From: Patescibacteria group bacterium
GTDB taxonomy: Bacteria > Patescibacteriota > Patescibacteriia > Magasanikbacterales > UBA922
Direction: 5' to 3'
Length of the DNA stretch: 64,000 bases
NCBI GenBank assembly: GCA_041658785.1
Contig: JBAZZL010000001.1
Span: 5,478 to 69,477 of the forward strand
Of this stretch, positions 30-51,993 are shown piece after piece. A model generated the notes under the pieces. It worked only from the letters and a program-made list of their open reading frames with translations. It made no database searches and was not told the DNA's origin. How positions within the stretch are numbered: position 1 is the stretch's first letter; each line of letters opens with the position of its first letter. Position numbers and translations under genes: made by a program.

Positions 30-110
30 GAATTACGAAACAGGCGTAAACTGTCATTCCCGTCCGCCAGCTGGCGGACGGGAATGACAAATGATGACGT
101 TTCGTAATTC
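30..110. repeat. Nested palindromic MITE-like element, family 1 (gaattacgaaac...gtcattcccg..cgggaatgac...gtttcgtaattc)
   Basis: Outer inverted repeat gaattacgaaac/gtttcgtaattc encloses inner inverted repeat gtcattcccgtccgccagctggcggacgggaatgac. Related copies at 1808-1935, 8767-8893, 51724-51829. Confidence 0.7.
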
Positions 111-376
111 AAAGGAAGTAGAAAAAAACGCCTTTTGCTTAATGGCATCCCTCCGCTATTTTTTATTCGCCTACGCCTGAATACCGCGGGGCTTGCCCCG
201 CGGATAAAAGGCGGAGCGAATCCGCCGATGAGGCAGATAAACCACGGGTGCTTCGGCGAATGAACTCTTATTTGCCTGATACCCCGAGGCTTGCCTCGGG
301 GAGGGGTTCATTGTTTATATTATAACATAATGTATTTAATAGCGCCAAATGGCCGAACTAGCATGATTTCAGACAG

Positions 377-405
377 TTGATATTTATCTCCCAAAGGCGT
401 ACAAT
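377..405 (+). promoter_or_regulatory. Sigma70-like promoter for ruvB (TTGATA-N17-TACAAT)
   Basis: ttgata at 377-382, 17-nt spacer, tacaat at 400-405, 9 nt before the ATG at 415. Confidence 0.45.
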
Positions 406-414
406 ACCCCTGCT

Positions 415-1455
415 ATGCCCAAAAATACACCTGAAACAAAGACCCGGCGCGTCGTGGCTCCAGAAGACAATGAAGAGGAGCTTATTTTTGATCTGACGCT
501 CCGTCCCCAGTGGTTAAAAGAATTTGTGGGTCAATCTCATATCAAAGAGCCTTTGTCAATTTCCATGCAAGCGGCCAAAAAACGCAACGAGCCGATTGAA
601 CATGTCTTGTTGTATGGAAACCCCGGGCTGGGAAAAACTACTCTGGCTCATATTATCGCGAAAGAAATGGGCAGCAGTATCAAAATGACCGCGGGTCCGG
701 CGCTGGAGCGGGTGGGAGACCTCGCGGCCATTCTTTCCAATCTGCAAAAAGGCGATGTCTTTTTTATTGACGAGATCCACCGGATGAACAAAACGATTGA
801 AGAAATTTTGTACACCGCGATGGAGGAGTACGCGCTTGATATTATTGTGGGAAAAGGCCCGGCCGCGCGGATCCTGCGGATGGCTCTTGAACCATTTACC
901 CTGATTGGAGCGACAACAAAAGTAAATCTTCTCTCCAGCCCCCTGCGCGATCGATTTGGCCATGTTTATCATTTGAATTTTTATGAGGTGGATGATATAG
1001 AAAAAATCGTTGCCCGCAATGCCAAATTGCTTGATGTAAAAATAGACCAACCCGCCCAAAATATAGTTGCCGGCCGATCCAGGCGAACGCCGCGGGTGGC
1101 CAACCGGCTATTGAGGCGCATCCGCGACTTTGCGGAAGTGCGGCATGATGGTATAATAACCGAGGCGATTGCCGAAGACGCCCTTGACATGCTAAACATT
1201 GACGCGCGCGGCCTGGACGAAGTTGACCGCAAAATTTTGCTCGCCATTATAGAAAAATTCAATGACGGGCCGGTTGGTTTGAATACTCTGGCGGCGGCAG
1301 TGGCAGAAGACATGGATACAATAGAAACTGTTTACGAGCCGTATCTCTTGCAGATCGGAATGATTGAAAGGACGCCGCGCGGCAGAAAGGTAACAAAGTT
1401 GGCCCATGAGCATTTGAGAAAAAATCAGGGACAAGCGCAAGAAACCCTTTTATAA
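415..1455 (+). CDS. ruvB: Holliday junction branch migration helicase RuvB
   Basis: Walker A GNPGLGKTTLAHIIA, AAA+ sensor motifs, winged-helix C-terminal domain; 346 aa, full length. Confidence 0.93.
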   Translation: MPKNTPETKTRRVVAPEDNEEELIFDLTLRPQWLKEFVGQSHIKEPLSISMQAAKKRNEPIEHVLLYGNPGLGKTTLAHIIAKEMGSSIKMTAGPALERVGDLAAILSNLQKGDVFFIDEIHRMNKTIEEILYTAMEEYALDIIVGKGPAARILRMALEPFTLIGATTKVNLLSSPLRDRFGHVYHLNFYEVDDIEKIVARNAKLLDVKIDQPAQNIVAGRSRRTPRVANRLLRRIRDFAEVRHDGIITEAIAEDALDMLNIDARGLDEVDRKILLAIIEKFNDGPVGLNTLAAAVAEDMDTIETVYEPYLLQIGMIERTPRGRKVTKLAHEHLRKNQGQAQETLL

Positions 1456-1462
1456 ATTATTT

Positions 1463-1720
1463 ATGATAGAAGTTCCACTCTACCTCTTTCTCTTCCTCTA
1501 CTTTATATTTCTCGCGTTATTCGCCGGCTTTTATTTGGCGATAATGTACCACATTATAAGCAGCGCTTCTTTTACCTTGGCCAGTTTTTTCGCCTCTTTT
1601 TTTATTTTTGCCCTGACAGCGCTGACATTTTACGCCACTAGGCAGCTTTTGCTCGAAGTGGATTGGCGGCAGATCGTCTTTAGTGTTGATATGAGTTATT
1701 TATACTCAATTGTTATTTAA
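1463..1720 (+). CDS. Small hydrophobic membrane protein (hypothetical)
   Basis: 85-aa ORF 8 nt after the ruvB stop, with two or three predicted TM helices. No recognisable family. Confidence 0.3.
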   Translation: MIEVPLYLFLFLYFIFLALFAGFYLAIMYHIISSASFTLASFFASFFIFALTALTFYATRQLLLEVDWRQIVFSVDMSYLYSIVI

Positions 1721-1807
1721 TTCCGGCACTGGTAGGCGTTTTAGGGGCTGCCAATGAATAAATAATGTAAATAAACTGTTAATGTTGAGAGCGTTAAATA
1801 ATTCAAC

Positions 1808-1935
1808 TGTCATTCCCGCCCCCGTTTCCACGAGGGTAAACTCCGGCGGGAATCCAGTCGCCTCGTATTATAGCTTAGCCATGTTTCTGGATTCTGCCGG
1901 AGTTTATCCTCGCGCAGGCGGGGGCGGGAATGACA
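1808..1935. repeat. MITE-like family 1 copy (gtcattcccgcccccg ... cgggggcgggaatgac)
   Basis: Inverted termini gtcattcccgcc/ggcgggaatgac; internal ggtaaactccggcgggaatccagtcgc block shared with the copy at 51724-51829. Confidence 0.7.
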
Positions 1936-2048
1936 TATCCACCGCGAACCCCGGGGCAGAGCCCCGAGGAATTAGTTGATTAATAAAGCGAAGGGGCATA
2001 TCCGGGATGTTTTAGTCCTTAATCCGCGCCAGCCGAGGGCGGCAATTT

Positions 2049-2606: not shown

Positions 2607-2647
2607 ACCCGATGCGCGGATCAACGCGTCGCAACGGAATCCCGAAT

Positions 2648-3060: not shown

Positions 3061-3627
3061 TTACTCGCTCGCTCTCCCGGCATATTCTCCAGTCTCGGTA
3101 TTAACCAGCACCTCTTCGCCTTCTTTTATAAATATCGGAGCTCTTATTTTTAATCCATTGTCCAGCGCTATTTCTTTGGTAACATTGCCGCTCGCCGTGT
3201 CCCCTTTTACCGCCGGAGGCGCTTCTGCCACACTATACTTTATTTTTTTTGGCAATTCTATCGCCACCGGATTGCCATCATGCAACGCCATTACCACTAC
3301 CAGTCCGTCTTTCAAATATTTCGCGTCCTCGCCGATTATATTCAAATTAACATCCAAAGTTTCATAATTTTCTTGATCCATAAATGAATAAACCGCGCCG
3401 TTGTTATAAAGATATTGCATGCTTTTTCTGTTTATATAAACGGTGTCAACCGCTTCTCCGCTTTTGTAGGTAATTTCAATCGTCTTCCCCGAAGCAATTC
3501 CCTTCATTTTTGTTTTGGTAAAAGCCGCGCCCTTTCCCGGATTTACAAATTGAAAACCAACCACAGCATAAAGCTCGCCATGGCGGCGGATGACCGATCC
3601 CTTTTTAATGTCGTTGGTGTCTCCCAT
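3061..3627 (-). CDS. efp: Elongation factor P
   Basis: 188 aa. Conserved loop VNPGKGAAF carries the modifiable Lys (equivalent to E. coli K34). Three-domain EF-P layout. Confidence 0.93.
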   Translation of the reverse strand: MGDTNDIKKGSVIRRHGELYAVVGFQFVNPGKGAAFTKTKMKGIASGKTIEITYKSGEAVDTVYINRKSMQYLYNNGAVYSFMDQENYETLDVNLNIIGEDAKYLKDGLVVVMALHDGNPVAIELPKKIKYSVAEAPPAVKGDTASGNVTKEIALDNGLKIRAPIFIKEGEEVLVNTETGEYAGRASE

Positions 3628-3628
3628 A

Positions 3629-3760
3629 AAGCATTAAAGCACTAAAGCACTAAAGCACTAAAGCACTAAAGCACTAAAGCACTAAAGCACTAAAGCACTA
3701 AAGCACTAAAGCACTAAAGCACTAAAGCACTAAAGCACTAAAGCACTAAAGCACTAAAGC
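3629..3760. repeat. 9-bp microsatellite (gcactaaag) x about 14.5 in the efp upstream region
   Basis: Perfect tandem copies read directly. A second AT-rich repeat (ttttaatgttttaaag x3) lies at 3853-3897, overlapping the epmA 3' end. Confidence 0.9.
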
Positions 3761-3871
3761 AAAAAAAACATTCATTTTTGATTTTAATATTTGTTTGTAA
3801 TTATCTGTCACACGCCTTATTTTATTTTGCTTTTTTATTTTCTTGCTTTTATGTTTTAATGTTTTAAAGTT

Positions 3872-8655: not shown

Positions 8656-8766
8656 ATGTTTAAGAGGGGTTTAAGAGGGTGGTAGCGAGAATTTAACGAA
8701 ATTATACAGAATTAAACGAAATTAAAGTAAATTATAAAAAATTTTGTTCAGTTTTGTTTAATTTCT

Positions 8767-8893
8767 GTGAATTACGAAACTATCTCTTTTTGTCATTCCC
8801 GCGGAGGCGGGAATCCAGTCGTAAGGTGAATCTGGCTCGATTTCTGGATTCCCGCCTCCGCGGGAATGACAGACAATGCATTTCGTAATTCAC
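8767..8893. repeat. MITE-like family 1 copy with outer gtgaattacgaaac/gtttcgtaattcac inverted repeat
   Basis: tgtcattcccgcggaggcgggaatccagtcg ... gattcccgcctccgcgggaatgaca, nested inside the outer inverted repeat. Flanked by AT-rich aattaaacaaaat-type degenerate repeats (8105-8195, 8690-8765). Confidence 0.75.
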
Positions 8894-9019
8894 AATAATT
8901 TAGTAAGTTATTTAAGTTGATTGAATTGTAGCATAGATTGGAGCTCGGGGCAATAATTGACTTTTGACGTTAGATTTATTATTATTAAAGAACAATTTAC
9001 ACTAATGAATCAGTAAGTT

Positions 9020-16209: not shown

Positions 16210-16785
16210 ATGATTTCCTCAATCCGCGGCACAACCGTCGCCAAAACCGCCACCAGCGTTCATATTCAAACCTCCGGCGGTGTTGGCTATGAAATTTCTT
16301 TAACTCCGCTCCACGCGGCGAAGCTGGTTTTGAATAAGGAAGCGGAATTGCCGACTTATTTGCGGGTGACGGAAAGCGCGCTGGATTTGTTCGGTTTTCA
16401 GAATGATGAAGAGAGAGGTTTTTTTATTTTATTGATTTCCGTTTCCGGCGTCGGCCCGAAGACCGCGTTGAACATTTTGTCTTTGGGATCGTTATCGGAA
16501 ATAAAATCCGCCATCGCCCGCGGGGACGCGAAGTATCTTTCGGCGGTCAAGGGAATCGGGAGGAAGACGGCGGAGAGGTTGTGCGTGGAGCTTAAGTCAA
16601 AAATCACGAGGCACGAGGCATACAGCACGACGCAAACGAACGGCGGAGTGCTATCTGAAGTAATAGACGGACTGGTTGCCTTGGGATATTCTCGGGAAGA
16701 GGCGCGGGAGGCGGTCGCGGGGGTGGAGAGCGAAGGGAAGACGACGGAGGGGATTTTGAGAGAAGTTTTGAAGAATAAAAAATGA
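16210..16785 (+). CDS. ruvA: Holliday junction DNA helicase RuvA
   Basis: OB-fold N-terminus, two HhH motifs (LISVSGVGPKTALNIL; LSAVKGIGRKTAERL), C-terminal RuvB-binding domain. Confidence 0.88.
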   Translation: MISSIRGTTVAKTATSVHIQTSGGVGYEISLTPLHAAKLVLNKEAELPTYLRVTESALDLFGFQNDEERGFFILLISVSGVGPKTALNILSLGSLSEIKSAIARGDAKYLSAVKGIGRKTAERLCVELKSKITRHEAYSTTQTNGGVLSEVIDGLVALGYSREEAREAVAGVESEGKTTEGILREVLKNKK

Positions 16786-16981
16786 TTAGAAATTGGTAAT
16801 TGGTAATTGGTTACATTGTTAAATTGTTGTCGTGTTGTGGCGTTGCCGTGTTGCAGTATTGTTGTGTCATGGTTGAAAAATAAATTGGAAACAAAAACCC
16901 CGGCCGCTCGGTCGGGATTTGTATTTTATTTCATTATTCATTATTCATTTTGAGTCGTGTTGCGCGCCTCGTGCTTTGTGA

Positions 16982-19477
16982 TTACAAAAGCGCGATACTC
17001 GCCACCTTATCCCCCTCTTCCTTAAACCGCATCACGCGCACGCCTTGGGTGGCGCGGCCGAGAGTGGATACGGAATTGAGCGGAGTGCGGATCACCTGGC
17101 CTTTGACCGAGATCATCATCAGATCTTTTTCTTCGGTTCTGTTAATTACCCGCGCGCTGATAATTTTGCCGGTCTTGTCAGTAATGGCCATGGTCTTGAT
17201 GCCAGAGCCGCCTCTGCCTTGCACTTTGTATTCATTCAAATTAGTGCGCTTACCTAGGCCGTTTTCCGAAATTACCAAAAGCTCCAATACTTTTTGTCCT
17301 ACCAGCTTGGGATCAATAATTTCCATTCCCACTATCGCGTCTTTGTTTGATTTAAGCCTAATGCCGCGCACGCCAGCCGCCGCCCGGCCCATGGCCCGCA
17401 CATTTGTTTCCCTGATGCGGATTGATTGTCCGCCGGCAGTAACCATCATAATTTCGTCTTTGCCAGCGGATGGGTGCACCCATTCTAGCCTCTCGTCTTC
17501 TTTGAGCTTGACCGCGATTAGGCCTGATCGGCGAACATTGACAAAATCTTCTATCTTGGTTTTTTTGATGGTTCCTTTGTTGGTAACCATTACCAAGAAC
17601 GCGAATTTATTTATATCACCCATGGAGAGCATCACTGCCACTTTTTCATTCGGCGCCAGTTGCAAAAAGTTTACCATTGCTTGTCCTTTGGAAGTGCGGG
17701 TAGCTTGGGGAATATCATAAGCCATGAGTTGGAAGACTCGGCCGCGGCTGGTGAAGAACAGCATGTTATCATGAGTGTTGGTAGAGATGATTTGTTCTAC
17801 CACATCCTCTTCTTTGGTAGTCAATCCAATTACGCCTTTGCCGCCCCGGCCTTGGGTTTTGAAAGTGTCGGGCGGCAGGCGCTTGATGTAGCCATCGTGA
17901 GTCATCATGACGATAGTTGGTTCGTTGGGGATGAGATCTTCCATGCTAAAGTCGCCTACGGCTCCGGCGACAATTTTGGTGCGGCGCTCATCGCCGTATT
18001 TTTCTTTAATTTCTTTAATTTCTTTTTTGATTAAATTCAAAACTTTTTTTGGACTAGCCAGCAATTCTTGCAATTCTTTAATTTGAGTTATTTTCTCTTT
18101 AAGCTCATCCAAAACTCTTTGCCTTTCCATATTAGCCAGTTGTTGCAGGCGCATCTCAAGAATAGCCGCCGCCTGGCGGTCAGTAAACTTGAATTTGCTC
18201 ATCAAGTTTGTTTTGGCGATATCTTTGTCTTTGGATTTGCGAATGACGCTGATTACCGCGTCGATTTTATCAATCGCCTTTTTCAGACCTTCAAGAATGT
18301 GGGCGCGTTCTTTGGCCACATTCAAATCAAACTGGGTTCGGCGGGTAATTATTTCTTGCCGGTGTTTGATATATTCTTCCAAGACTGATTTCAAATTCAT
18401 CAGGCGCGGCTGGATTCTTTCTACTAAAGCAATCATGTTTACGTGGAAAGTAGTTTGCAGTTCAGTAAGATTGAACAAGCGATTCAAAACTTTTTTGGGA
18501 TAAGAATCTTTTTTAAGGTCAATTACCACGCGCACGCCATCTTTGTTGGATTCATCGCGCAGATCTTTGATCCCATCAATTTTTTTCTCTTGCACCAAAG
18601 AAGCGATTTTTTCAATCAATTTCGCCTTGTTGATTTGATAAGGAATTTCGGTGATCACAATCTGAAATAAGCCGCCCTTATCTTCTTGGATTTCTGTCTG
18701 TCCGCGCAGGACAATGCCGCCGCGTCCGGTGGCATACGCGGCAATGATGTCTTTTTTATTATAAATAATACCGCCCGTAGGAAAATCCGGTCCTTTGACA
18801 AATTGCATCAATTCTTCAATCGTGGCTTTCGGGTCGTCAATCAAATGGGCGGCGGCAGCGCATAACTCTGACAAATTGTGCGGCGGAATATTCGTCGCCA
18901 TGCCGACAGCAATACCCATGCTTCCATTCAAAAGTAAGTTTGGCAGCTTGCTTGGCAGCACCCTCGGCTCTTTGGTGGAGCTGTCATAGTTCGGGGTAAA
19001 ATCAACCGTTTCTTTTTCAATATCAAAAAGCATTTCTTCGGCAATTGATTGCAGTTTGGCTTCGGTATAGCGCATAGCCGCGGCGCTGTCTCCATCCATA
19101 GAACCAAAATTGCCCTGGCCATCAATCAAGGGATTTCTCATGCTAAAGTCCTGCGCCATTCTAACCAAAGAATCATAAATAGCGGCATCGCCATGGGGAT
19201 GGTATTTAGCCATTACTTCACCCACCACATGAGCCGATTTTCTAAATTTTGCGTTGTGCCTTAGGCCGATTTTCCACATGGCATAAAGAATTCTACGGTG
19301 AACCGGCTTAAGACCGTCTCGGACATCGGGCAGGGCGCGCGACACAATGACACTCATTGCATAATCCAAATAGGAACGTTTCATTTCATCAACCAGCTGG
19401 ATTGGCTCAATTCTGCCGGTCGGCGCTTTTGGCTCGCCTGGCCGCGGCATGGATTTTAACATTTGTTTCTTTGGCAT
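16982..19477 (-). CDS. gyrA: DNA gyrase subunit A
   Basis: [28 protein letters not shown] with the active-site Tyr region; GyrA box QGRGGKG in the C-terminal beta-pinwheel; 831 aa. Confidence 0.95.
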
Positions 19478-31383: not shown

Positions 31384-31394
31384 ATTTTTATTTT

Positions 31395-31500
31395 TTAATC
31401 CGTCTACGCCTGTGGGCTGCGCCGGACAAGAAGGTGGTTTAATTCCCCGCAGCTTGCTGCGGAACAAGAGTCCAGAGCTTGCTCTGGGGTTCATACCTTT
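31395..31500. repeat. Palindromic repeat family 3 (cttaatccgtctacgcctgtgggctgcgccggacaag ... ccgcagcttgctgcgg ... ccagagcttgctctggggttcatacc)
   Basis: The reverse-complement copy at 51238-51440 is interrupted by a family-1-like insert of about 100 bp. A partial copy lies at 31931-31975. Confidence 0.7.
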
Positions 31501-31657
31501 GATTTTTTTTAAGGCCCTTTGAGGTTTGGGGCGGCAATCGAACGAACTACGCCCCCTTTCCCTTTCAAAGTATAGCACAATTTACAAATCCACAAAATAG
31601 TCCAGCTTTTTGGTTGTCGGTTTTCCGCTCGTTATACCACTCAATTGTTAATCAAAA

Positions 31658-33258: not shown

Positions 33259-33589
33259 ATTTTAATTATTTAATTTATTTTCTATTATCACTTTCTTTAT
33301 TTATTATTAATAATATTGTTGTGTATTGTAGAGGAGTGGATAGAGTGGATAAAACATGAAATTGCTTTTTATTGAGTCTAAAATTGAAGGTGGCGGACGT
33401 GGTGTGTTTGTGTTTTTTTGTTGATTAATTGTTTATATTTTTTTGTATTATTTTTTGTTTGTGTATAAGGTGTTTTTGATTTTTATATTTTTCAACAGGC
33501 TGGCGGCAGTTTAATTTTTTTTTCAACAATATTATCCACCGATATATTATTTTTTTAAATCAATTCAATCTGCCTGCGCCGCCTTGAAA
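33259..33589. other. Candidate oriC segment (dnaA-dnaN intergenic, AT-rich, DnaA boxes)
   Basis: Near-consensus DnaA boxes gtggataaa (33345-33353), agtggatag (33335-33343) and ttatccacc (33533-33541), in very AT-rich sequence. Confidence 0.6.
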
Positions 33590-39714: not shown

Positions 39715-42432
39715 ATGCTAAAAGAGAAACAACGTTTTATCATCATTGACGGCAACGCCATTATCCACCGCGCTTATCACGCCCTGCCGCCCATGACGGC
39801 CAAAGATGGCACCATGGTGAACGCGGTCTATGGCTTTACTTCAATGTTGCTCAAAGTTATTAATGATTTGAAACCCACGCACCTCGCGGTTAGTTTTGAC
39901 GTGGCCGGACCGACGTTTCGCGATAAATTGTACGCGGATTACAAAGCTACGCGCGTGAAAGCCGACCAAGATTTGTATGACCAGATTCCGCTTTGTTATC
40001 AGATTGTGGAAGCGTTTGGGATTCCGATCTATACGAAAGAGGGATTTGAGGCGGATGATGTGATTGGGACGATAACCAAGAAACTGGAAACTGGAAATTT
40101 GAAATTAGATATTGAAGCGATTATTGTGACCGGCGACAAAGATATGTTACAACTCGTTGAAAATGAAAAAGTTGAAGTGTATTTGTTGCGCAAAGGAATG
40201 TCTGATTACCATTTGTTTGATGAGAAAAAAGTAAAGGAAGAGTTTGGTTTTGGACCGGAGATGATAGTAGATTACAAAGCCCTGCGCGGTGACGCATCGG
40301 ATAATATACCGGGGGTGAAAGGGATTGGGGAGAAGACGGCGACGGAGTTGATTACAAAGATTGGGGGGGTTGAAGATATTTACCGAAAGATTGAAAGATT
40401 GAAAGATTATAAGATTAGTGATTCGGTGATTAAAAAATTGGAAGATGGAAAAAGAGATGCGGAGATGAGTAAAAAGTTGGCAACGATTGATACGGACGTG
40501 AAAGGGCTGAAGTTTAGTTTGGATGATTGCGAGACGGGTCGGTTTGACGCGGGGAAGATTGAGGGGATGTTGAAGAAGTTTGAGTTTTTTTCACTGCTTA
40601 AACGTATCCCAGGAGCGAGCGTTGAAAATAAGTTACAAGTTACAAGTTACAAGTTACAGAATGAGAGTAGGAAAAAAATAGACGGCGGCATTGAAATAGA
40701 AATTATTAAGTCAGCCGATGAGGTTAAAAAGTTGGCAAACGAGATTAAAAAAGCCGGAGTTTTTGCGTGTAAAGAAATAGTTAGCGGGAAAAATATTATT
40801 GAAGGAAAATTTGAGGGGCTGGTTTTTGTGGTTGATGGAAATAGTTATTTTGTGGATGGGCGGTTTGACGAATTGGCGGAGATTTTTACTGATCAGAAAA
40901 TTTTACTTATCGGGCACGACCTCAAACAATTAATAAAGGTACTTCAATGTAACAATGAAACAATGAAACAATGTAACAATTTATTTGACACCATGATTGC
41001 TTCCTATGTTTTAAATTCCAGCACCAGAGCCCATGATTTGAAGGCGATTATAATGCGCGAGCTAGGCAAGGATCTGCCGGGAAGTTCTGATCAGGCCAGC
41101 TTGTTTGGAGTGAATCCAAAGATTGCGGCAGAAGAGTTAATTTTGGTTTTGCAAGTTTATCAAAAATATGACAAACAACTTAGTGAGATGGAAGATAAAG
41201 GATTGTTTGAAAAAATAGAAATGGCGCTGATTCCGGTTTTGGCGGAAATGGAATTAAACGGCGTGGCGGTTGATAAGGAGATGCTCGGGCGGCTTTCCAA
41301 AGAAGTGGTCAAAGATATTGACAAAGTTACTAAAAAAATCTGGCAAGAAGCCGGCGAAGAATTTAATGTGTCTTCGCCTGTTCAGTTGCGGGACGTTTTA
41401 TTTGAAAAAATGGGACTGCCGGCGCAAGGAATCAAAAAAGGCAAAACCGGCTATTCCACGGCCTCGCCGGAATTGGAAAAACTGCGGGGCGCGCACCCGA
41501 TTGTTGAATTGATTGAAGAATATCGGGAATTGGAAAAACTGCGCAATACCTATATTGACGTTTTGCCGAATTTAATCAACAAAAAGACCGGTCGCATTCA
41601 CACCACTTTTAATCAGGCAGTAACTACCACCGGCCGACTTTCCAGCTCAGATCCGAATTTACAAAACATTCCCATCAAAACCGAACTGGGGCGGGAAATC
41701 CGCAAAGCGTTTTTGGCGGAAAAAGGATATTGTCTGGTGGTGGCGGATTATTCCCAGATTGAACTGCGCATCGTCGCCTCGCTCGCCGAAGACAAAATTA
41801 TGATGGAGATTTTTGAACGGGGAGAAGACATCCATCAAGCCACCGCGGCGGCCATTAATGGCGTTGGTCTGGACAAAGTAACCAAAGAAATGCGGAGCGC
41901 GGCCAAAGCGGTTAATTTTGGCGTTCTCTACGGCATGGGGTCGTACGGATTATCCTGGCGGGCCGGAATTTCCCAGAGCGAAGCGCGGGAGTTTATTGCC
42001 AAATATTTTGAACAGTTTGCCGGAGTGAAAAAATATCTTGACCAGACGCTTGAATTTGCTAAAAAAGAGGGCTATGTGGAAACCCTGTTCGGCCGGCGGC
42101 GGTATATTCCGGAATTAAAATCCGACAATTTCCAAATGCGAAGCGCGGGCGAGCGAATGGCGATTAATATGCCGATTCAGGGCACGGCCGCGGATTTGAT
42201 GAAGATGGCGATGATTGAGGTGAGCGAAAAGATTAAAAGATTAAAAGATTATAAGATTGGAGAGGTGAAGATTATTTTACAAGTGCATGATGAGTTGGTG
42301 TTGGAGGTGAAGAAGGGGTTGGAAGATGAAATTTCTAAATTAGTAAAAGAAGCGATGGAGGGGGTGGCGAAGTTGCGCGTGCCGATTGGGGTGGATGTGC
42401 GGGTGGGGGCGAGGTGGGGGGAATTAAAATAA
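39715..42432 (+). CDS. polA: DNA polymerase I
   Basis: 5'-3' exonuclease domain (IIDGNAIIHRAYHAL), polymerase motifs A (LVVADYSQIELRI), B (RSAAKAVNFGVLYG) and C (LQVHDELVLEV). In-frame oligonucleotide repeats at 40385-40412, 40632-40659, 40951-40980 and 42226-42257. Confidence 0.95.
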   Translation: MLKEKQRFIIIDGNAIIHRAYHALPPMTAKDGTMVNAVYGFTSMLLKVINDLKPTHLAVSFDVAGPTFRDKLYADYKATRVKADQDLYDQIPLCYQIVEAFGIPIYTKEGFEADDVIGTITKKLETGNLKLDIEAIIVTGDKDMLQLVENEKVEVYLLRKGMSDYHLFDEKKVKEEFGFGPEMIVDYKALRGDASDNIPGVKGIGEKTATELITKIGGVEDIYRKIERLKDYKISDSVIKKLEDGKRDAEMSKKLATIDTDVKGLKFSLDDCETGRFDAGKIEGMLKKFEFFSLLKRIPGASVENKLQVTSYKLQNESRKKIDGGIEIEIIKSADEVKKLANEIKKAGVFACKEIVSGKNIIEGKFEGLVFVVDGNSYFVDGRFDELAEIFTDQKILLIGHDLKQLIKVLQCNNETMKQCNNLFDTMIASYVLNSSTRAHDLKAIIMRELGKDLPGSSDQASLFGVNPKIAAEELILVLQVYQKYDKQLSEMEDKGLFEKIEMALIPVLAEMELNGVAVDKEMLGRLSKEVVKDIDKVTKKIWQEAGEEFNVSSPVQLRDVLFEKMGLPAQGIKKGKTGYSTASPELEKLRGAHPIVELIEEYRELEKLRNTYIDVLPNLINKKTGRIHTTFNQAVTTTGRLSSSDPNLQNIPIKTELGREIRKAFLAEKGYCLVVADYSQIELRIVASLAEDKIMMEIFERGEDIHQATAAAINGVGLDKVTKEMRSAAKAVNFGVLYGMGSYGLSWRAGISQSEAREFIAKYFEQFAGVKKYLDQTLEFAKKEGYVETLFGRRRYIPELKSDNFQMRSAGERMAINMPIQGTAADLMKMAMIEVSEKIKRLKDYKIGEVKIILQVHDELVLEVKKGLEDEISKLVKEAMEGVAKLRVPIGVDVRVGARWGELK

Positions 42433-42968
42433 ACGAGCGCACACGCGTTCCTTCTCCTCGTAGGAGAAGGACAGGTAGAGGTCTCAACGAGCGCATGGTA
42501 ACAAACGAGCGTATGTCAAAAAGAGATCGTTATATCATAGACGACCTGACAAAACAAAGACGAAAACGTTTGCGAATCGGTCCGACAAAAGCAGAGTATG
42601 TGCTGTGGCAGGATTTGAGAAGACAGAAAACCGGGTATAAATTTCGCCGACAAACAAGCATCGACAAGTTTATTGTTGATTTTTATTGTCATGAATTGCG
42701 TTTAGCAATAGAGGTGGATGGATCAATTCATTTAGATGATTTTCAGGCGGAATATGATAGGCGAAGAGAAGAATTTTTACGTCGCCGAGGGTATGTGGTG
42801 ATAAGATTTAAGAATGACGAGGTTTTGTTTGAGCGGGAGAGGGTGATGGGGGTGATTGACGAGTGGTGTAGCAGGTTGGCGGTTAAATATTGAGACATTT
42901 TTTATTGTGCCTGCGCTCGTTGAGACCCTTCCCTGTCCCCCGGACGGGGGAACTCGTTTACCCTCGTT
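42433..42968. mobile_element. Inverted-repeat-flanked mini-element carrying a DUF559 gene, inserted at the polA stop codon
   Basis: Left arm 42433-42492 (aacgagcgcacacgcgttccttctcctcgtaggagaaggacaggtagaggtctcaacgagcgca) and right arm 42912-42968 (reverse complement aacgagggtaaacgagttcccccgtccgggggacagggaagggtctcaacgagcgca). Shared ends, internal hairpins with compensatory sequence. Confidence 0.55.
42513..42893 (+). CDS. DUF559 endonuclease-domain protein (Vsr-like / restriction-endonuclease-like fold)
   Basis: AEYVLWQDLRRQKTGYKFRRQTSIDKFIVDFYCHELRLAIEVDGSIH...RRREEFLRRRGYVVIRFKNDEV matches the DUF559 consensus. The ORF opens inside polA at 42414; the 42513 start is preferred. Confidence 0.7.
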   Translation: MSKRDRYIIDDLTKQRRKRLRIGPTKAEYVLWQDLRRQKTGYKFRRQTSIDKFIVDFYCHELRLAIEVDGSIHLDDFQAEYDRRREEFLRRRGYVVIRFKNDEVLFERERVMGVIDEWCSRLAVKY

Positions 42969-43735: not shown

Positions 43736-44575
43736 ATGAGCTGTAGAAGAATATCGGACAGATGTGATAAAATAGATATGATTCTTTTTATGTTCAACGA
43801 ATTGTTTCGCAATAAATACCGTATCGCATCAGCCCGCCATCCGAATTGGAATTACACGTCCGTTGGGCGTTATTTTGTGACGATTTGCACGGGCGGACGG
43901 ATTTGCCATTTTGGCAAAATTGAAAATGGTGGTATGATATTATCCCCGACGGGCAGAATTGTTCGGGAGGAATGGTTGAAAACGCCGCGAATTCGCGATA
44001 ATATAAAATTGGACGCGTGGGTGGTGATGCCGAACCATTTGCATGGGATTGTGGTGATAAAAACATTGGGGGAAAATAAAATGGCGGTAATGTCAGGTTC
44101 AACGACAAATGGCGGTGATGAAAACGTGGGTGATGGGAATGATGCGGGCGGTGGGGAAAACGTTGGTGACGGAATAAACGTTGGCGGTGGGAATAACGTT
44201 GGCGGTAGAGACGCCCCGCCGGGGCGTCTCTACGATTGCATTCCACCAAACGATTGCATTCCACCAAACGATTGCATTCCACCAAACGATTGCATTATTA
44301 CCAACGTTGACAATGCATCCGTGAACGCAATCAACCGATCGTCCAATACCGGCGGCCCCAATCCCAATTGGAAACCCAATTCGTTGGGTTCAATTGTCAA
44401 CCAATTTAAATCAATTTGCACCAAACGGATTCGTTCGGCCGGACATTCGGATTTTTCCTGGCAGGCGCGATTCCACGACCATATTATCCGCAACGAAATC
44501 GCGTTGAATAATATCCGCCGATATATTAAACAAAATCCCCAAAAATGGGGTACGGATTGTTTTCATGTTTTATGA
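43736..44575 (+). CDS. IS200/IS605-type Y1 (HuH) transposase, REP-associated (RAYT-like), with a roughly 100-aa low-complexity and palindrome insert
   Basis: HuH motif WVVMPNHLHGIVVI; C-terminal SWQARFHDHIIRNEIALNNIRRYIKQNP block. Insert = G/N/D-rich segment, 29-nt palindrome (44205-44233) and 4x DCIPPN from an 18-bp repeat (44231-44296). Confidence 0.6.
   Translation: MSCRRISDRCDKIDMILFMFNELFRNKYRIASARHPNWNYTSVGRYFVTICTGGRICHFGKIENGGMILSPTGRIVREEWLKTPRIRDNIKLDAWVVMPNHLHGIVVIKTLGENKMAVMSGSTTNGGDENVGDGNDAGGGENVGDGINVGGGNNVGGRDAPPGRLYDCIPPNDCIPPNDCIPPNDCIITNVDNASVNAINRSSNTGGPNPNWKPNSLGSIVNQFKSICTKRIRSAGHSDFSWQARFHDHIIRNEIALNNIRRYIKQNPQKWGTDCFHVL
44205..44233. repeat. Perfect REP-like palindrome GTAGAGACGCCCCGCCGGGGCGTCTCTAC inside the RAYT ORF
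   Basis: 13-bp perfect arms. A second copy with an added 18-bp direct repeat sits at 45215-45261 inside holA. Confidence 0.85.
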
Positions 44576-45708
44576 TTATATTTTTATACGGCCCGGACAC
44601 CTTCCGTAGCCGGCAACAATTGAAAAAAATGATCGCCAAGTTCAAACATGACCGCGACCCGCAAGGGCTGAATGTGGTTCGTTTGGACGCGGAAAAAGAA
44701 GAAGACACCCGCCGGGTTACGAGCGAAATTTTGGCTACGCCGTTTTTGGCCGAGCGGCGGATGGTGGTGATTGAAAATTTGTTAAATTCTAAACAGACGG
44801 ATTTATTGGAAGGGTTATTGAAAAGAATTGAAGAAAAAAAAATGCCGGAATCAAACGTGATTATTTTTTGGGAAGCGCTGGACGATCCGGCGCAAAAGAA
44901 AAAAGGGGATGAAACGGCAACGCCAAAAACCAAGGCGGCGAAAGAACTGTTCGCGCGTTTGCAAAAAGAAAAATACGCCCAGCGGTTTGAATTATTTTCC
45001 GGCGCCAAACTGGCGACCTGGATCGCGGGCGAAGTAAAAGAACGCGGCGGCGTCATTGACCGGCCCGCGGTCGATTATCTGGCCGCGAACGTGGGGGGCG
45101 ACATGTGGCGGTTGAATTCGTTGATTGGACAATTGGTGGCGTATTGTTATTCCGAAGGCGGCGACGGTGCGTTGCGTGGGGACGCCACGGCACATGGGGA
45201 CACCCCGGCGGCGGGTAGAGACGCCCCGGCGGGTAGAGACGCCCCGGCGGGGCGTCTCTACGCCGTTGACAGGGTTGCGGAGGCAATACGGGCAAAGGAC
45301 GTCCAATTGTTTCTAGACGAACGCGCCGACGACAACATTTTCAATCTGGTAGACGCCATTGTCGCGAAAAATCCCAAACAGGTTTTTGTCATGATTCAGG
45401 AACAATATAATAAAGGCGAGGACGCGCAGTATATTTTTGCGATGTTAATAAGGCAGTTTCGTATTTTGTTGGAACTCCGAGACATGTTTGACCGCGAAGA
45501 TAATATCCAGAGCGGCGTTCTGGCGCAAAAGTTGGGGCTCCATCCGTTTGTGGTGAAAAAATCACTGCCTTTGGTCAAGCGATACACCATGGCGGAATTA
45601 AAAAACATTTACGAACGCCTGCTTGAGCTGGATATCCAAACAAAAACCGGCCAGGGCGGCCAGTCGTTGTTGTTGGATATTTTCGTTGGGAGAATCTGCG
45701 CGGAGTAG
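44572..45708 (+). CDS. holA: DNA polymerase III delta subunit
   Basis: About 380 aa, clamp-loader delta-like N-terminal (IIFLYGPDTF) and C-terminal helical domains. ATGA overlap with the RAYT stop. Convergent with rpsT, a common arrangement. Contains an in-frame REP-like insert (AGRDAPAGRDAPAGRLY). Confidence 0.65.
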   Translation: MIIFLYGPDTFRSRQQLKKMIAKFKHDRDPQGLNVVRLDAEKEEDTRRVTSEILATPFLAERRMVVIENLLNSKQTDLLEGLLKRIEEKKMPESNVIIFWEALDDPAQKKKGDETATPKTKAAKELFARLQKEKYAQRFELFSGAKLATWIAGEVKERGGVIDRPAVDYLAANVGGDMWRLNSLIGQLVAYCYSEGGDGALRGDATAHGDTPAAGRDAPAGRDAPAGRLYAVDRVAEAIRAKDVQLFLDERADDNIFNLVDAIVAKNPKQVFVMIQEQYNKGEDAQYIFAMLIRQFRILLELRDMFDREDNIQSGVLAQKLGLHPFVVKKSLPLVKRYTMAELKNIYERLLELDIQTKTGQGGQSLLLDIFVGRICAE

Positions 45709-48763: not shown

Positions 48764-48771
48764 AATACTAA

Positions 48772-50114: not shown

Positions 50115-50933
50115 ATGGACAAGAATTTAGAACAACTCGGTTTGGACAAAACAGAGTCAAAAATATATTTGGCTTTGCTTGAACTTGGCCCCTCAACCGT
50201 TAGTGAGATAACTAAAAAAGCCAGTGTGACGCGCACGCTTGGCTACCATGTGCTCCAAAAACTCGGCTGGTACGGGTTGGTGGATCGGGTTTCTGGACGC
50301 GGGAGCAAAATTATTTTTTCCGCGACGCATCCGCGCCAATTGGTTCAACACTTACAAAATAAAAAAAATACCTGGGAAAAAAAGTTGAAAGAGGCAGAGA
50401 AGCTCTTGCCAGAATTGATTTCTTTGTATAAAATTGCGGAGAAGCCGACGATTCGCTTCCAGGAAGGTTTGGTCGGGATTAAAAACACTTATAGCGAAAC
50501 CTTGGAATCAAAAACAGAGATTTTTTCTATTCTTGATATTGAGGGCTGGGATATTCCGGAGTTGCGCCAGTTTGGCAAGGATTACAACCGTGAACGAAGC
50601 AGACGAAGAATTAAAGAACGTTTTTTGATATTAGACACGCCCCAAGCCCGGGAATGGATGAAATTTTACAAGGGATCGTTAAAATACACGGATTATCGTT
50701 GGATTAGGTCGGATCAGCTACCCGGAATAGCGGAGTTCGGCGGGGAAATTAATATCTATGAGGATAAAGTGGCGATGATGCTCTTGAAAAAGCCCAACAG
50801 AATGGGTATAATGGCGCAGAGTTCGGCTTTGGCGAATATTTTGAAGGGGCTCTTTGAGCTCGCCTGGCAAGCAGGAACACCGGCGCGGAGAAAAAGACCC
50901 CGTAGTTCAACGGATAGAACAAGACACTCCTAA
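50115..50933 (+). CDS. TrmB-family transcriptional regulator (wHTH)
   Basis: N-terminal TrmB HTH (ESKIYLALLELGPSTVSEITKKASVTRTLGYHVLQKLGWYGLVDRV) plus a C-terminal domain. The ORF 3' end overlaps the tRNA-Arg gene by 38 nt, so the true stop is uncertain. Confidence 0.6.
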   Translation: MDKNLEQLGLDKTESKIYLALLELGPSTVSEITKKASVTRTLGYHVLQKLGWYGLVDRVSGRGSKIIFSATHPRQLVQHLQNKKNTWEKKLKEAEKLLPELISLYKIAEKPTIRFQEGLVGIKNTYSETLESKTEIFSILDIEGWDIPELRQFGKDYNRERSRRRIKERFLILDTPQAREWMKFYKGSLKYTDYRWIRSDQLPGIAEFGGEINIYEDKVAMMLLKKPNRMGIMAQSSALANILKGLFELAWQAGTPARRKRPRSSTDRTRHS

Positions 50934-50967
50934 CGTCTAGATACAGGTTCAATTCCTGTCGGGGTCA
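50896..50967 (+). tRNA. tRNA-Arg (CCT)
   Basis: Hand-folded: perfect 7-bp acceptor GACCCCG/CGGGGTC, D-stem GTTC/GAAC, anticodon loop CTCCTAA, T-arm ACAGG-TTCAATT-CCTGT, discriminator A. Confidence 0.75.
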
Positions 50968-51059
50968 CCGAGTTCATGATGCATGATGCACACAACACGA
51001 CCCAATTTGGACAATTCGTGATGAATCATGCTGTGTGCATCATGTATCGTGATAAAAAC
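50968..51059. repeat. MITE-like family 2 copy between tRNA-Arg and tRNA-Ala
   Basis: catgatgcatgatgcacacaacacgacccaatttggacaattcgtgatgaatcatgctgtgtgcatcatgtatcgtg aligns to 24123-24205. Confidence 0.65.
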
Positions 51060-51132
51060 GGGCTCGTAGCTCAGCTGGTAGAGCACGGCATTCGCATTGC
51101 CGGGGTCAGGGGTTCGAATCCCCTCGAGTCCA
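51060..51132 (+). tRNA. tRNA-Ala (CGC)
   Basis: GGGCTCGTAGCTCAGCTGGTAGAGCACGGCATTCGCATTGCCGGGGTCAGGGGTTCGAATCCCCTCGAGTCCA; G3:U70 pair present. Confidence 0.85.
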
Positions 51133-51237
51133 CTGTTTCGTGTTCATGATGTATAATACATGTAGCGTAATACATTACAATTGTATACACTAGTGTATAC
51201 AAAAATTGGTCAAAAGCCAATTTTTTATTATTTTGTC

Positions 51238-51440
51238 ACACGTGAAATAATCAATGGTATGAACCCCAGAATAAGCTTTGGGTCCTTGTTCCGCAACAAG
51301 CTGATGAGAATTAAATTGTTTTTTTGTCCGGCCCGTCTTCTCCAGCCCGCCAGCTGGCGGACGGGCGACGCAGGGTAAACTCCGTCAACTGGCGGAGACG
51401 GAACTTGTCCGGCGCAGCCCACAGGCGTAGACGGATTAAG
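51238..51440. repeat. Family 3 repeat copy (reverse complement of 31395-31500) split by a family-1-like insert (about 51300-51410)
   Basis: Termini align to both ends of 31395-31500. The insert carries cccgtcttctccagcccgccagctggcggacggg, related to 45-95. Confidence 0.65.
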
Positions 51441-51723
51441 GATTGATAAAATGTGTACAAATCTGTGGTTATGAGTGGTAGTATGTTAATAACTTTATCT
51501 GACTGGCAATAATAATCCTGCTATTTAAATTAAAAGGTTTTTTGTGGAACAAGAATTTAGAGATAAGTTTAAGATAAATAGGCGATTTAAGTTGAAAGAT
51601 AATAGATTTACGAAGCTATTTTAGATATAATTTATAAATTATTATTTATAATTTAGATATAAAATAATGTCGTACAATATAATATAGTTTATAAAGTTGA
51701 GAGCAGCGTTGAATAATTCAAAT

Positions 51724-51829
51724 GTCATTCCCGCCCCCGCCTGCGCGAGGATAAACTCCGGCGGGAATCCAGTCGCAATGCTGGATAAATTAGCCAATTT
51801 TCTGGATTCCCGCCTCCGCGGGAATGACA
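51724..51829. repeat. MITE-like family 1 copy
   Basis: gtcattcccgcccccgcctgcgcgaggataaactccggcgggaatccagtcgc ... ggattcccgcctccgcgggaatgaca. A related outer-arm remnant tttcgtaattcac lies at 51933-51946. Confidence 0.7.
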
Positions 51830-51993
51830 AATTAAAGCAAAATATCAATTATTCAACGGTCTAAAAGTTAAAAAGAAAGTAAGCAATCTGTCATTATGTG
51901 GTTGTCGCCGAATGACAATAAAGAGGTGGTTTCGTAATTCACAGTAATTACCAAACTTTTTAATAATCTTATTTTGTGGTATAATTTTTTTGT

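Follow-up and report, generated by a model that had tools for sequence, protein, structure and literature searches.

Palindromic intergenic repeats in a Patescibacteria genome: probable non-autonomous mobile elements that combine an NTS/SRM-type hairpin pair with a transposon-like shell

The stretch of DNA analysed here (the window) comprises 64,000 nucleotides of a contig (JBAZZL010000001.1) from an uncultured Patescibacteria and harbours a family of palindromic repeats of ~90–150 bp, all of them intergenic and none coding. An earlier note, made from the sequence alone, had listed four full copies, here termed A (30–110), B (1808–1935), C (8767–8893) and D (51724–51829). All four were recovered at these positions, far above chance, and the flanking DNA contains a fifth copy ~8 kb beyond the window end. 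The common termini proved genuine: allowing up to one mismatch, GTCATTCCCGC matches nine times against 1.19 expected, a count reached by none of 100 shuffles, and eight of the nine matches are the paired termini of A (53–63/78–88, one mismatch each, ...CCCGT), B (1809–1819/1924–1934), C (8792–8802/8860–8870) and D (51724–51734/51818–51828). Likewise, two copies are indeed nested in a second inverted repeat, since both arms of this shell, GAATTACGAAAC, are present in A (30–41/99–110) and C (8769–8780/8880–8891, the right arm, ATTTCG..., with one mismatch); the window holds six shell matches against 0.57 expected, the fifth being a lone right arm (51929–51940) and the sixth, at 25090, being probably due to chance. 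The internal block TAAACTCCGGCGGGAATCCAGTCG, thought to be common to the copies, occurs in B and D only, C having just GGCGGGAATCCAGTCG and A being devoid of it. The arms of C (28 nt) are 100% complementary and those of B (40 nt) 88%, and the core of A is a 36-nt perfect palindrome.

Both shelled copies have the anatomy of complete MITEs. Copy A (20–120, no strand assigned), delineated by its sequence, motif matches, target-site duplication (TSD) and fold, lies in the divergent nrdR/ruvB spacer. Its perfect 6-bp TSD, GAAGTA (20–25 and 115–120), encloses a terminal inverted repeat (TIR), CTTTGAATTACGAAAC at 26–41 and GTTTCGTAATTCAAAG at 99–114, with 16/16 complementary positions, followed by non-complementary linkers (42–51 and 90–98) and a collapsed core (52–89), a perfect palindrome of TGTCATTCCCGTCCGCCAG abutting CTGGCGGACGGGAATGACA, with both outward GTCATTCCCG ends retained. 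Copy C (8759–8901, no strand assigned), supported by motif matches, TSD, fold and blastn, lies between the divergent promoter-like sites of rpiB and ileS. Here, the perfect 6-bp TSD TAATTT (8759–8764 and 8896–8901) borders the TIR (CTGTGAATTACGAAAC, 8765–8780; ATTTCGTAATTCACAA, 8880–8895) and, inward of the linkers (8781–8790 and 8872–8879), a plus-oriented SRM hairpin, TGTCATTCCCGCGGAGGCGGGAATCCAG (8791–8818), is separated by a 25-nt spacer (8819–8843) from its minus-oriented counterpart (8844–8871). As ssDNA, A and C are predicted to fold at –37.3 kcal/mol (z –12.2) and –51.4 kcal/mol (z –13.8), respectively, and blastn matched C to ~45 MITE copies of Patescibacteria. A RuvB identical to the one encoded in the window is listed by NCBI under 'Patescibacteria group bacterium', and the nearest relative shares 80% identity with it.

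Copies B and D are shell-less hairpin pairs, and neither TIR nor TSD was found at them; the earlier idea of MITE-like elements thus holds for A and C, with their 16-bp TIR and perfect 6-bp TSD, and may or may not extend to B and D. Copy B (1790–1935, plus strand) starts with a flank shared with D (1790–1807), followed by a long-loop hairpin(+) at 1809–1857, in which a 26-nt insert, CCCCGTTTCCACGAGGGTAAACTCCG, lies between GTCATTCCCGC and GCGGGAATCCAG, a spacer (1858–1886) and a long-loop hairpin(–) at 1887–1934 (predicted ssDNA fold –46.7 kcal/mol, z –9.2). Copy D (51705–51829, plus strand), delimited by aligning it with B, comprises the shared flank (51705–51722), a long-loop hairpin(+) (51724–51772), a spacer (51773–51801) and a short hairpin(–), CTGGATTCCCGCCTCCGCGGGAATGAC (51802–51828), with a dRS3 motif at 51806–51825 (–32.2 kcal/mol, z –6.3). 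Adjoining D is a lone right-hand MITE end (51889–51944, minus strand), which the earlier note had not separated out: a degenerate hairpin, TGTCATTATGTGGTTGTCGCCGAATGACA (51889–51917), a linker and the TIR GTTTCGTAATTCACAG (51929–51944). A convincing left partner was not found, the sole candidate being GATTTACGAAGC at 51605–51616, with two mismatches and no TSD.

The degenerate fragments that had been suspected are real insofar as they share sub-blocks with the full copies: in the window, GGRTAAACTCCGKC has five matches (23981 and 51373 among them) against 0.06 expected, and CCGCCAGCTGGCGG, with 0 expected, has matches at 64 and 51347. One of these relatives (51324–51412, plus strand), defined by a filled/empty alignment and its sub-blocks, carries an insertion signature. 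Its palindromic 73-nt insert (51332–51404), which holds CCGCCAGCTGGCGGACGGG (compare the core of A) and GGGTAAACTCCG (compare the loop insert of B), is bracketed by an 8-bp direct repeat, TTGTCCGG (51324–51331 and 51405–51412), and the uninterrupted paralogous site has a single CTTGTCCGG at 31422–31430 on the minus strand. The predicted fold of this relative is weak (–20.5 kcal/mol, z –1.5). The other fragment (23959–23998, plus strand), CCCGC-TCCCGCATCGCCGTGCGGGATAAACTCCG-GCGGGG, has the same type of loop insert, enclosed by a CCCCGC/GCGGGG stem, but lacks the GTCAT ends.

What is the GC-rich core of these elements? Judged by its sequence, GTCATTCCCGC-N4-GCGGGAATCCAG is the NTS/SRM hairpin, an extended Neisseria dRS3, and thus a widespread rather than a private repeat. 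Hairpins of this kind are bound and cut, exclusively as ssDNA, by the ~94-aa GIY-YIG nuclease Ssn, the cut falling a few nucleotides 5′ of a GTC that governs cleavage, with the C after the palindrome being most critical for binding (Chenal et al. 2025, PMC11893778). The window hairpin TGTCATTCCCGCGGAGGCGGGAATCCAG equals the published NTS, CGTCATTCCCGCGMAVGCGGGAATCYRG (PMC11893778), at 26/28 positions and keeps both the GTC and the 3′ C; with two differences, it misses the consensus where Chenal et al. allowed one mismatch. The degenerate SRM search string of that paper has no match in the window, because one loop position, a G in the window's GGAG, has to be H in the string. Three window sites, the one in D and two in C (8795–8814 and 8848–8867), match the dRS3 motif ATTCCC-N8-GGGAAT exactly. 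This likens the repeats to the dRS3/NIMEs of Neisseria, as does their mosaic make-up of variable segments between inverted dRS3-type hairpins in intergenic DNA, albeit in another phylum. To our knowledge, NIMEs possess neither a 16-bp TIR shell nor a TSD. Neisserial filamentous prophages also integrate at dRS3 (cited in PMC11893778); no comparable feature was seen in the DNA analysed here.

The arrangement of the hairpins points in the same direction. We inspected 80 metagenomic loci with genes for proteins related to an Ssn-like GIY-YIG protein of Harrisonbacteria (Pfam GIY-YIG, E ~1e-18); by size, single domain and hairpin flanks, these proteins are putative cd10448/Ssn members. A (+) arm lies ≤200 nt upstream of the gene in 72/80 loci, a (–) arm downstream in 70/80 and both are present in 66/80. 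Five of the loci (L221, L223, L262, L285, L287) carry GTCATTCCCGC-GGAG-GCGGGAATC, which is the 24-nt core of the window hairpin with its GGAG loop (the locus hairpins match at 23/28 nt), in L221 and L223 placed 38 nt upstream of ssn; the long-loop variant of copies B and D lies directly 3′ of the ssn gene in L239. Each window core is an inverted hairpin pair, equivalent to an SRM-ssn-SRM cassette without the gene. Hairpin sequence, inverted arrangement, multiple copies and intergenic location agree with the published cassettes (PMC11893778). Unlike these, the window pairs enclose no ssn, and neither tblastn nor Pfam searches of ~45 ORFs revealed an ssn/GIY-YIG gene in the window; nor was one found in the 10 kb on either side (84 kb in total). 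Moreover, the host belongs to the Patescibacteria, absent from the main text of PMC11893778, and A and C have a shell and TSDs, neither of which that paper describes.

Could the repeats instead act as RNA? The earlier note had considered a small RNA or attenuator, and conservation might reflect a structured RNA (also a terminator or mRNA stabiliser), given the very stable predicted hairpins beside gene starts. In Rfam, the hairpin has a sub-threshold match to the Francisella sRNA FtrB, scoring 28.6 bits where the gathering score is 66, and the string gcgggaatgac occurs in a paper on Francisella sRNAs, which shows that transcription of such hairpins is possible. On the other hand, no Rfam family was hit at gathering score, the sub-threshold matches being to generic hairpins; the promoter-like sites of ruvB and ileS are located downstream of A and C, respectively; and neither copy is followed by a terminator-like T-run, none having turned up around C. 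The elements are freely found in either orientation, and the TSDs signify insertion. Lastly, SsnA fails to bind the hairpin as RNA (PMC11893778). We regard an RNA role as highly improbable. One weak terminator-like match is located inside B (1885–1902).

The shell extends well beyond this genome. Scanning species-representative genomes for GAATTACGAAAC-N5-35-GTCATTCCCG returned 93 stretches with shell plus core in 40 assemblies, mostly Patescibacteria (24 labelled as Patescibacteria lineages, 6 as unlabelled 'bacterium'), where chance predicts ~2 (our estimate for a pattern of 22 fixed bases and 31 possible gap lengths, sought on both strands of 596 Gb). Perfect 6–8-bp TSDs abut the TIR in 33 of the 66 complete elements, compared to 1.2% (sd 1.4%) with shuffled flank pairing, and the register-specific z reaches 9.6. 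All 16 TIR positions pair in 47–66 of the 66 elements, with linkers unpaired. Conserved termini and TSDs, which the earlier note had proposed to look for outside the window, are therefore present there, and the 16-bp TIR CTTTGAATTACGAAAC appears by these sequence criteria to be the end of a MITE family spread through Patescibacteria. Size, non-coding nature, TIRs, TSDs, high copy number, intergenic location and strong fold-back potential are shared with other bacterial MITEs, such as the Correia elements of Neisseria and the RPEs of Rickettsia. Correia elements have the TIR TATAGTGGATTAACAAAAATCAGGAC and duplicate TA, whereas the window TIR is unrelated in sequence and the TSD measures 6–8 bp. 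Unlike in those MITEs, the interior is an SRM pair, a protein-target module, rather than the remnant of a transposase gene, and our search did not turn up the parent transposon: no autonomous element with the 16-bp TIR was found, long TIR pairs enclosing host genes only, and neither the window nor the 10 kb on either side encodes a matching transposase. A nearby IS481-like transposase was rejected as partner, lacking the 16-bp TIR. Lone TIRs elsewhere adjoin housekeeping genes.

The RAYT-like gene at 43736–44575, named earlier as the one conceivable partner, would make the elements REP/BIMEs. The ORF is genuine (NCBIfam REP_Tyr_transpos, E = 2e-16; HLHGIVV and WQARFHDHII motifs) and the elements are palindromic and extragenic, yet it scores below the family cutoff (60 versus 80 bits), is broken up by a REP together with tandem repeats, and its own flanking and embedded REP, GTAGAGACGCCCCGCCGGGGCGTCTCTAC, has the usual GTAG head and is unrelated to GTCATTCCCGC. 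REP/RAYT systems, as far as we know, make no TSDs, and we give this reading almost no credence. Chenal et al. draw a REP/BIME–RAYT analogy for Ssn (PMC11893778): in both systems, a small dedicated nuclease recognises hairpin repeats in their ssDNA form, and copies of these repeats flank the nuclease gene. Ssn, however, has a GIY-YIG fold rather than the HUH/Y1 fold of the IS200/IS605-related RAYTs and another motif, and the window's own REP/RAYT pair is separate and differs in sequence.

We consider it likely that these repeats represent mobile DNA, non-coding and non-autonomous, in two layers, an ssn-less NTS/SRM pair as core and, in A and C, a TIR shell. This builds on the observed motif identity, ssn-flanking architecture elsewhere, TIRs, TSDs, wide distribution and one filled/empty pair of a degenerate relative. 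The first layer consists of inverted hairpins, GTC-ATTCCCGC-loop-GCGGGAAT-C-CAG, equivalent to the SRM(+)-ssn-SRM(–) cassette that surrounds Ssn nuclease genes in many bacteria, minus the ~280-bp gene. With its two hairpins in opposite orientation, an element would offer one cleavable site on each DNA strand, predicted to fall in the variable linker immediately inward of either shell arm. In the second layer, the shelled MITE would insert at AT-rich sites with 6–8-bp (usually 7-bp) TSDs, which suggest that a cut-and-paste-type transposase acting in trans moves it. The packaging of a known hairpin pair inside a classical transposon shell was not reported in the literature we searched.

Alternatively, the whole element might transpose via a single-stranded fold-back intermediate, with Ssn itself as part of the machinery. 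The shell would then form the base of one long ssDNA hairpin instead of a TIR bound by a transposase, and the element would be released or processed when Ssn cuts its linkers; if true, this would constitute a new GIY-YIG-dependent transposition pathway. Shell and hairpins are strongly conserved over hosts of 30–54% GC while linkers and central spacer drift, suggesting that both parts are needed for propagation, and two-sided changes preserve shell pairing (position –2, TA 40/GC 8; –1, TA 55/CG 5; +3, TA 60/AT 4). These covarying positions may, however, mark one or two subfamilies derived from single master copies and would then not be independent events. The published cut site does coincide with the variable linker that separates the hairpin from the shell, and NTS-ssnA-NTS has been called IS-like in appearance (PMC11893778), but cuts inside the shell would leave the shell itself unmobilised. 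In L174, an ssn gene lies inside a right shell arm (ssn, SRM(–), 10-nt linker, right TIR), an arrangement that equally speaks for the shell as a transposon end. Among the 80 ssn loci, by contrast, none has the TIR within 400 nt of the gene, so shell and ssn are normally separate. The 6–8-bp TSDs, moreover, indicate that the target is a duplex cut in a staggered fashion; ssDNA transposition of the IS200/IS605 type makes no TSD that we know of. Overall, fold-back transposition seems unlikely.

The shell could also be a pre-existing palindromic site into which hairpin pairs preferentially insert. Its distance to the hairpin falls into few classes (10 nt, 34 cases; 14 nt, 16; 20–21 nt, 17), and shell-less pairs occur (B, D, most ssn loci). 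Still, the direct repeats border the shell and not the core, no empty shells with abutting arms were seen, the shell is found at unrelated loci of 40 assemblies with different flanks each time, and L204 is a complete element with the same arms around a divergent interior. We therefore deem this very unlikely.

Under the preferred reading of mobile, two-layered elements, the MITE may act as a vehicle spreading Ssn sites in Patescibacteria, and B and D presumably arose by whatever process multiplies SRM hairpins around ssn genes. By analogy with Neisseria, a cognate Ssn in this genome might cut the hairpins in ssDNA during uptake, replication or repair, and thereby modulate recombination. The hairpin pattern is also present in >120 viral contigs, with a GC content of 0.41–0.70 among the matches listed.

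What are the palindromic elements in this window made of? The four full copies that an earlier note had read from the sequence were all recovered where it had placed them: copies A (20–120), B (1790–1935), C (8759–8901) and D (51705–51829). Each has a core of inverted hairpins, here called SRM(+) and SRM(−); in A and C this core is enclosed by a shell, a 16-bp terminal inverted repeat (TIR), and B and D are shell-less. The 11-nt terminus GTCATTCCCGC, with up to one mismatch, matches the window nine times compared with 1.19 expected, eight of these matches being the paired ends of A–D, and a 12-mer of the shell matches six times compared with 0.57 expected. The 28-nt arms of copy C are perfectly complementary, the core of copy A is a perfect 36-nt palindrome, and the predicted single-stranded DNA folds of the four copies range from −32 to −51 kcal/mol, at z-scores between −6 and −14. 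The 24-nt internal block previously ascribed to all copies is present in B and D only. All four copies are intergenic, occupying the nrdR/ruvB, ruvB/bPH-domain gene, rpiB/ileS and tRNA-Ala/ORF 51994 spacers, and a fifth, of the B/D type, lies on the same contig ~8.2 kb past the window end (positions 19161–19282 of the flanking locus L324). This contig is a 125.8-kb ENA assembly (ERZ27247322, k141_305148), and the window stretch has also been assembled from a JGI sample (3300028032) and a Logan sample (SRR8449812).

A precedent for the core comes from Neisseria, where the 28-nt Neisseria Transformation Sequence (NTS), CGTCATTCCCGCGMAVGCGGGAATCYRG, extends the classical dRS3 repeat, and degenerate "Ssn-related motifs" (SRM) border ssnA homologues across many phyla (Chenal et al. 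2025; PMC11893778). SsnA, a single-domain GIY-YIG protein of 94 aa, binds the hairpin solely as ssDNA—dsDNA, RNA and the reverse strand are not bound—and cuts a few nucleotides upstream of it, with the three bases 5′ of the palindrome controlling cutting and the C directly 3′ controlling binding (PMC11893778). In N. meningitidis, the Ssn/NTS system reduces the integration of transforming DNA bearing the NTS; the authors likened NTS-ssnA-NTS to an insertion sequence, and left open both the function outside Neisseria and the mode of repeat spread (PMC11893778).

Sequence identity establishes the core of the window elements as a predicted Ssn target hairpin. On this point the earlier MITE reading was incomplete, as the core is the NTS/SRM hairpin known since 2025. 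The exact dRS3 core is present at three window sites. The NTS consensus, for which its authors allow one mismatch, has no exact match in the window; the best hairpin, TGTCATTCCCGCGGAGGCGGGAATCCAG, is two positions off (T for C at position 1, G for M in the loop) and keeps both critical features, the 5′ GTC and the 3′ C. The published degenerate SRM string, HGTCWYN(0-2)YYVSBRHN(0-5)WNVSBRGN(0-2)RNCYNB, matches nowhere in the window (0.17 matches in shuffles), missing the window hairpin because of a single loop base, at the "H" position; we therefore tested membership by genomic context. In C and D, GTC-ATTCCCGC...GCGGGAAT-C-CAG forms both arms; in B it forms only the left one, the right being degenerate (CAGAAT-C-CAG), and A retains only the two outward GTC ends of the directional hairpin flanks.

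For the contextual comparison, we collected 80 loci of ssn, the Ssn nuclease gene, as metagenomic relatives of one Harrisonbacteria Ssn-like protein; matches to the GIY-YIG Pfam family had E-values of 1e-15 to 4e-18. A (+) arm lies within 200 nt upstream of the gene in 72 of these loci and a (−) arm downstream in 70, with both present in 66. Five of the 80 carry a GGAG-loop hairpin that agrees with the window hairpin over 23 of 28 nt, which in two of them (L221 and L223) precedes ssn by 38 nt, and in L239 a long-loop variant—the hairpin with a 26-nt loop insert seen in the left arms of B and D—directly follows the gene. Thus, the window cores correspond to SRM(+)-spacer-SRM(−), an ssn cassette minus its gene. 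Neither the window nor the 10 kb on either side contain ssn (84 kb; tblastn, and Pfam over ~45 window ORFs). The 26-nt loop insert bears what we take to be a resemblance to type I-E CRISPR repeats, but with no array and no spacing a CRISPR reading was dropped as unsupported. When viral contigs were scanned for GTCATTCCCGC-N4-34-GCGGGAATCCAG, at least 120 matched; among the matches listed, GC content ranged from 41 to 70%, hairpins often came in inverted pairs, and some stood immediately before small GIY-YIG genes. A search of the PDB returned no solved Ssn structure, its only GIY-YIG match being the distant UPF0213 entry 1zg2; stronger matches to WD-40/WRAP-T chains look spurious.

The shell, in turn, behaves as a transposon end. 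One scan across species-representative genomes, for GAATTACGAAAC-N5-35-GTCATTCCCG, yielded 93 stretches in 40 assemblies, where we estimate ~2 by chance, with up to ~17 in a single assembly; CAYIIG01, CAZOIN01 and JAPLZG01 are rich in such elements. Twenty-four of the 40 are labelled as Patescibacteria lineages, six merely as "bacterium", and ten carry other labels, some of the latter being partial or chance matches (L137, L187, L216). The Patescibacteria labels comprise Uhr-, Moran-, Nomura-, Taylor-, Harrison-, Vogel-, Lipton- and Buchananbacteria, Parcubacteria and several TPA "Saccharibacteria" MAGs. The common architecture reads CTTTGAATTACGAAAC, a variable linker of 9–21 nt, SRM(+), a spacer of ~25 nt, SRM(−) (often as the variant CTGGATCCCCGC..GCGAGGATGACA), a linker of ~10 nt and GTTTCGTAATTCAAAG. 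With a size of mostly 100–160 bp, the elements are small, non-coding, multi-copy and located at unrelated loci, as befits a MITE. Among 66 non-redundant elements, the 16 TIR positions are complementary in 47–66, and the linkers are not. Perfect direct repeats abut the shell in 33 of the 66 (6 bp in 12, 7 bp in 17 and 8 bp in 4), compared with 1.2% perfect 6–8-bp repeats in a control with shuffled flank pairing; all are AT-rich and different at each site. The earlier note had staked its reading on conserved termini and target-site duplications (TSDs) in copies beyond the window, and both are found there. Together, these data establish a TIR/TSD transposition signature and its phylum-wide spread. 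In the window itself, the MITE reading holds for the shelled copies, A (TIR pairing 16/16, TSD GAAGTA) and C (14/16, TAATTT), but does not extend to B and D, which have neither TIR nor TSD. Junction queries against all fetched loci produced no junction-spanning match and one weak paralogous match only, and no orthologous empty site was found for A or C; an identical RuvB carries the NCBI name "MAG: Patescibacteria group bacterium", and the nearest RuvB relatives after it, labelled Parcubacteria or Magasanikbacteria, are at most 80% identical.

How did shell and hairpins come together? Most simply, the hairpin pair was captured by a MITE family on one or a few occasions and amplified from there. 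We lean, with some confidence, towards an ordinary MITE having captured the pair and spreading Ssn target sites, as their vehicle, across CPR genomes. The shell is absent within 400 nt of ssn in all 80 loci, and L204 is a complete element with the same arms around a divergent interior that keeps only GTCATT. Alternatively, hairpin pair and 16-bp shell might form one transposable unit in Patescibacteria, propagated via an ssDNA fold-back that is processed by an Ssn-type GIY-YIG nuclease. Shell and hairpins are strongly conserved while linkers drift, and changes on both sides keep the shell complementary, which leaves room for a functional link between the two. In one Harrisonbacteria locus (L174), whose left side is masked by Ns, degenerate hairpins come after ssn, and then SRM(−), a 10-nt linker and a right shell arm. 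We nevertheless regard a functional link as unlikely and the single-unit scenario as quite improbable; if true, Ssn-processed fold-back would be a previously unknown transposition chemistry, accounting for NTS/SRM multiplication. A patescibacterial Ssn would, judging by the motif, recognise the window copies and find one cleavable site per strand, in the linker inside each shell arm. Cutting of incoming or exposed ssDNA could then modulate recombination in these organisms, with the MITE acting as a vehicle for spreading Ssn sites. Most Patescibacteria MITE copies (L124–L216; e.g. L130, L152, L191 and L195) pair a hairpin of the type GTCATTCCCGC..GCGGGAATCCAG with one of a different type, GTCATCCTCGC..GCGGGGATCCAG, on the opposite side, which hints at two recognition specificities, by analogy with NTS and NTSvar in Neisseria.

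An autonomous element with the shell TIR was not found in ~0.7 Mb of fetched loci. Where two TIRs are separated by over 260 bp, they bracket ribosomal and other host genes, and lone TIRs adjoin genes for a Mur ligase, a methyltransferase and a cytidylyltransferase. An IS481-like transposase encoded on the window's contig, ~6.5 kb to the left of where the window begins (L326 3053–4141, minus strand; NCBIfam 175.6 bits, cutoff 224; Pfam rve/rve_3), carries no shell TIR and was likewise rejected. Scanning viral contigs with the shell 16-mer gave 27 single matches, about chance by our rough estimate. The RAYT suggested earlier as a mobility partner can be discounted, as the RAYT-associated REP, GTAGAGACGCC..., differs from the element sequence; the RAYT-like ORF is genuine, but sub-threshold and interrupted. 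A REP distinct from the elements, GTAGAGACGCCCCG(C/G)CGGGGCGTCTCTAC, occurs at 44205–44303 and 45214–45262, in frame within two ORFs: in the RAYT-like gene (43736–44575) it is followed by ~3.5 copies of an 18-nt tandem repeat, and in holA (44545–45708), as AAGRDAPAGRDAPAGRLYA, it falls between two Pfam delta-subunit domains. Such in-frame palindrome insertion is reminiscent of the Rickettsia RPEs.

A role as small RNA or attenuator, also proposed in the earlier note, finds no backing. At gathering threshold, Rfam 15 reports tRNAs only, and E-value thresholds brought up nothing relevant either; for the element regions, matches stayed below threshold and were miRNA-like or to FtrB. Promoter-like sites of ruvB and ileS, recognised by consensus matching only, are positioned downstream of A and C, which speaks against a leader or attenuator role. 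The SRM hairpin resembles the Francisella sRNA FtrB below threshold (28.6 bits against 66; 51785–51848, minus strand, and 8771–8845, plus strand). A Francisella sRNA paper (PMC3091763) includes the string gcgggaatgac, so to go by the sequence, a described Francisella sRNA may embed an Ssn-type hairpin.

What had been listed as a degenerate fragment at 51335–51410 is a 73-nt palindromic insert (51332–51404) between 8-bp repeats, TTGTCCGG, having sub-blocks in common with A and B. It sits in a repeat unit of ~130 nt whose other copy (31381–31508, minus strand) lacks the interruption and contains CTTGTCCGG only once. This degenerate relative, compared with a paralogous unit, is the sole filled/empty pair, and deletion between the 8-bp repeats is a viable alternative to insertion. 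The unit copies (31381–31508, minus strand, and 51245–51453, plus strand) are 80–88% identical, hold two short hairpins with GCAA loops (CCAGAGCAAGCTCTGG, CCGCAGCAAGCTGCGG) and fold as RNA no better than shuffles (z −1.2); one precedes an AI-2E transporter gene and the other follows tRNA-Ala.

While the core was already known (2025), the shelled composite, its Patescibacteria distribution and the MITE-hairpin association are unreported in the literature searched, which contained neither shell arm (GAATTACGAAAC or GTTTCGTAATTC) and no relevant link between Patescibacteria and MITEs; the main text of PMC11893778 does not mention Patescibacteria. The window thus bears on two questions from the 2025 Ssn/NTS work, hairpin multiplication and the role outside Neisseria. 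In Patescibacteria, Ssn-type hairpins are plentiful and move as the cargo of a conventional TIR/TSD element present in at least 40 assemblies, and this cargo status offers a concrete, testable dissemination route. The natural hairpin and linker variants may further be harnessed to probe Ssn specificity, and annotators gain a name for a repeat that otherwise yields spurious ORFs and breaks assemblies.

Several further features of the window deserve mention. Because it carries dnaN and dnaA (32140–34972, minus strand), the window is likely to include the region of the chromosomal origin; its GC-skew profile shows no clean switch. A perfect inverted repeat of 28 nt, ATAGAACTCACATTCCAAAATCGGACTG, follows directly on the ileS stop codon, with 98 nt separating its arms (11993–12020/12119–12146). 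Upstream of ruvB, a GC-rich stretch (208–324) matches Rfam HgcC below threshold (24.8 bits, gathering score 50, E = 0.004), and a terminator-like hairpin lies at 210–226 on the minus strand. A DUF559/Vsr-like endonuclease-domain ORF (42414–42893) and the end of polA share 19 nt. Many AT-rich spacers hold 7–8-nt tandem repeats (3627–3766, 40378–40440, 42228–42282, 16792–16826 and 24280–24357): TAAAGCAC recurs ~17 times between efp and a class-II tRNA synthetase gene, and AAAGATT and ATTGGTA are other spacer repeats. A 32-nt perfect inverted repeat of TTACGGA units adjoins the tRNA cluster. Finally, two 85-nt spacers between tRNA genes (24117–24201 and 50968–51052) are 78% identical and internally palindromic, with CACGAGG/CATGATG-like heptamers and related arms at 16601–16635 and 52650–52750.
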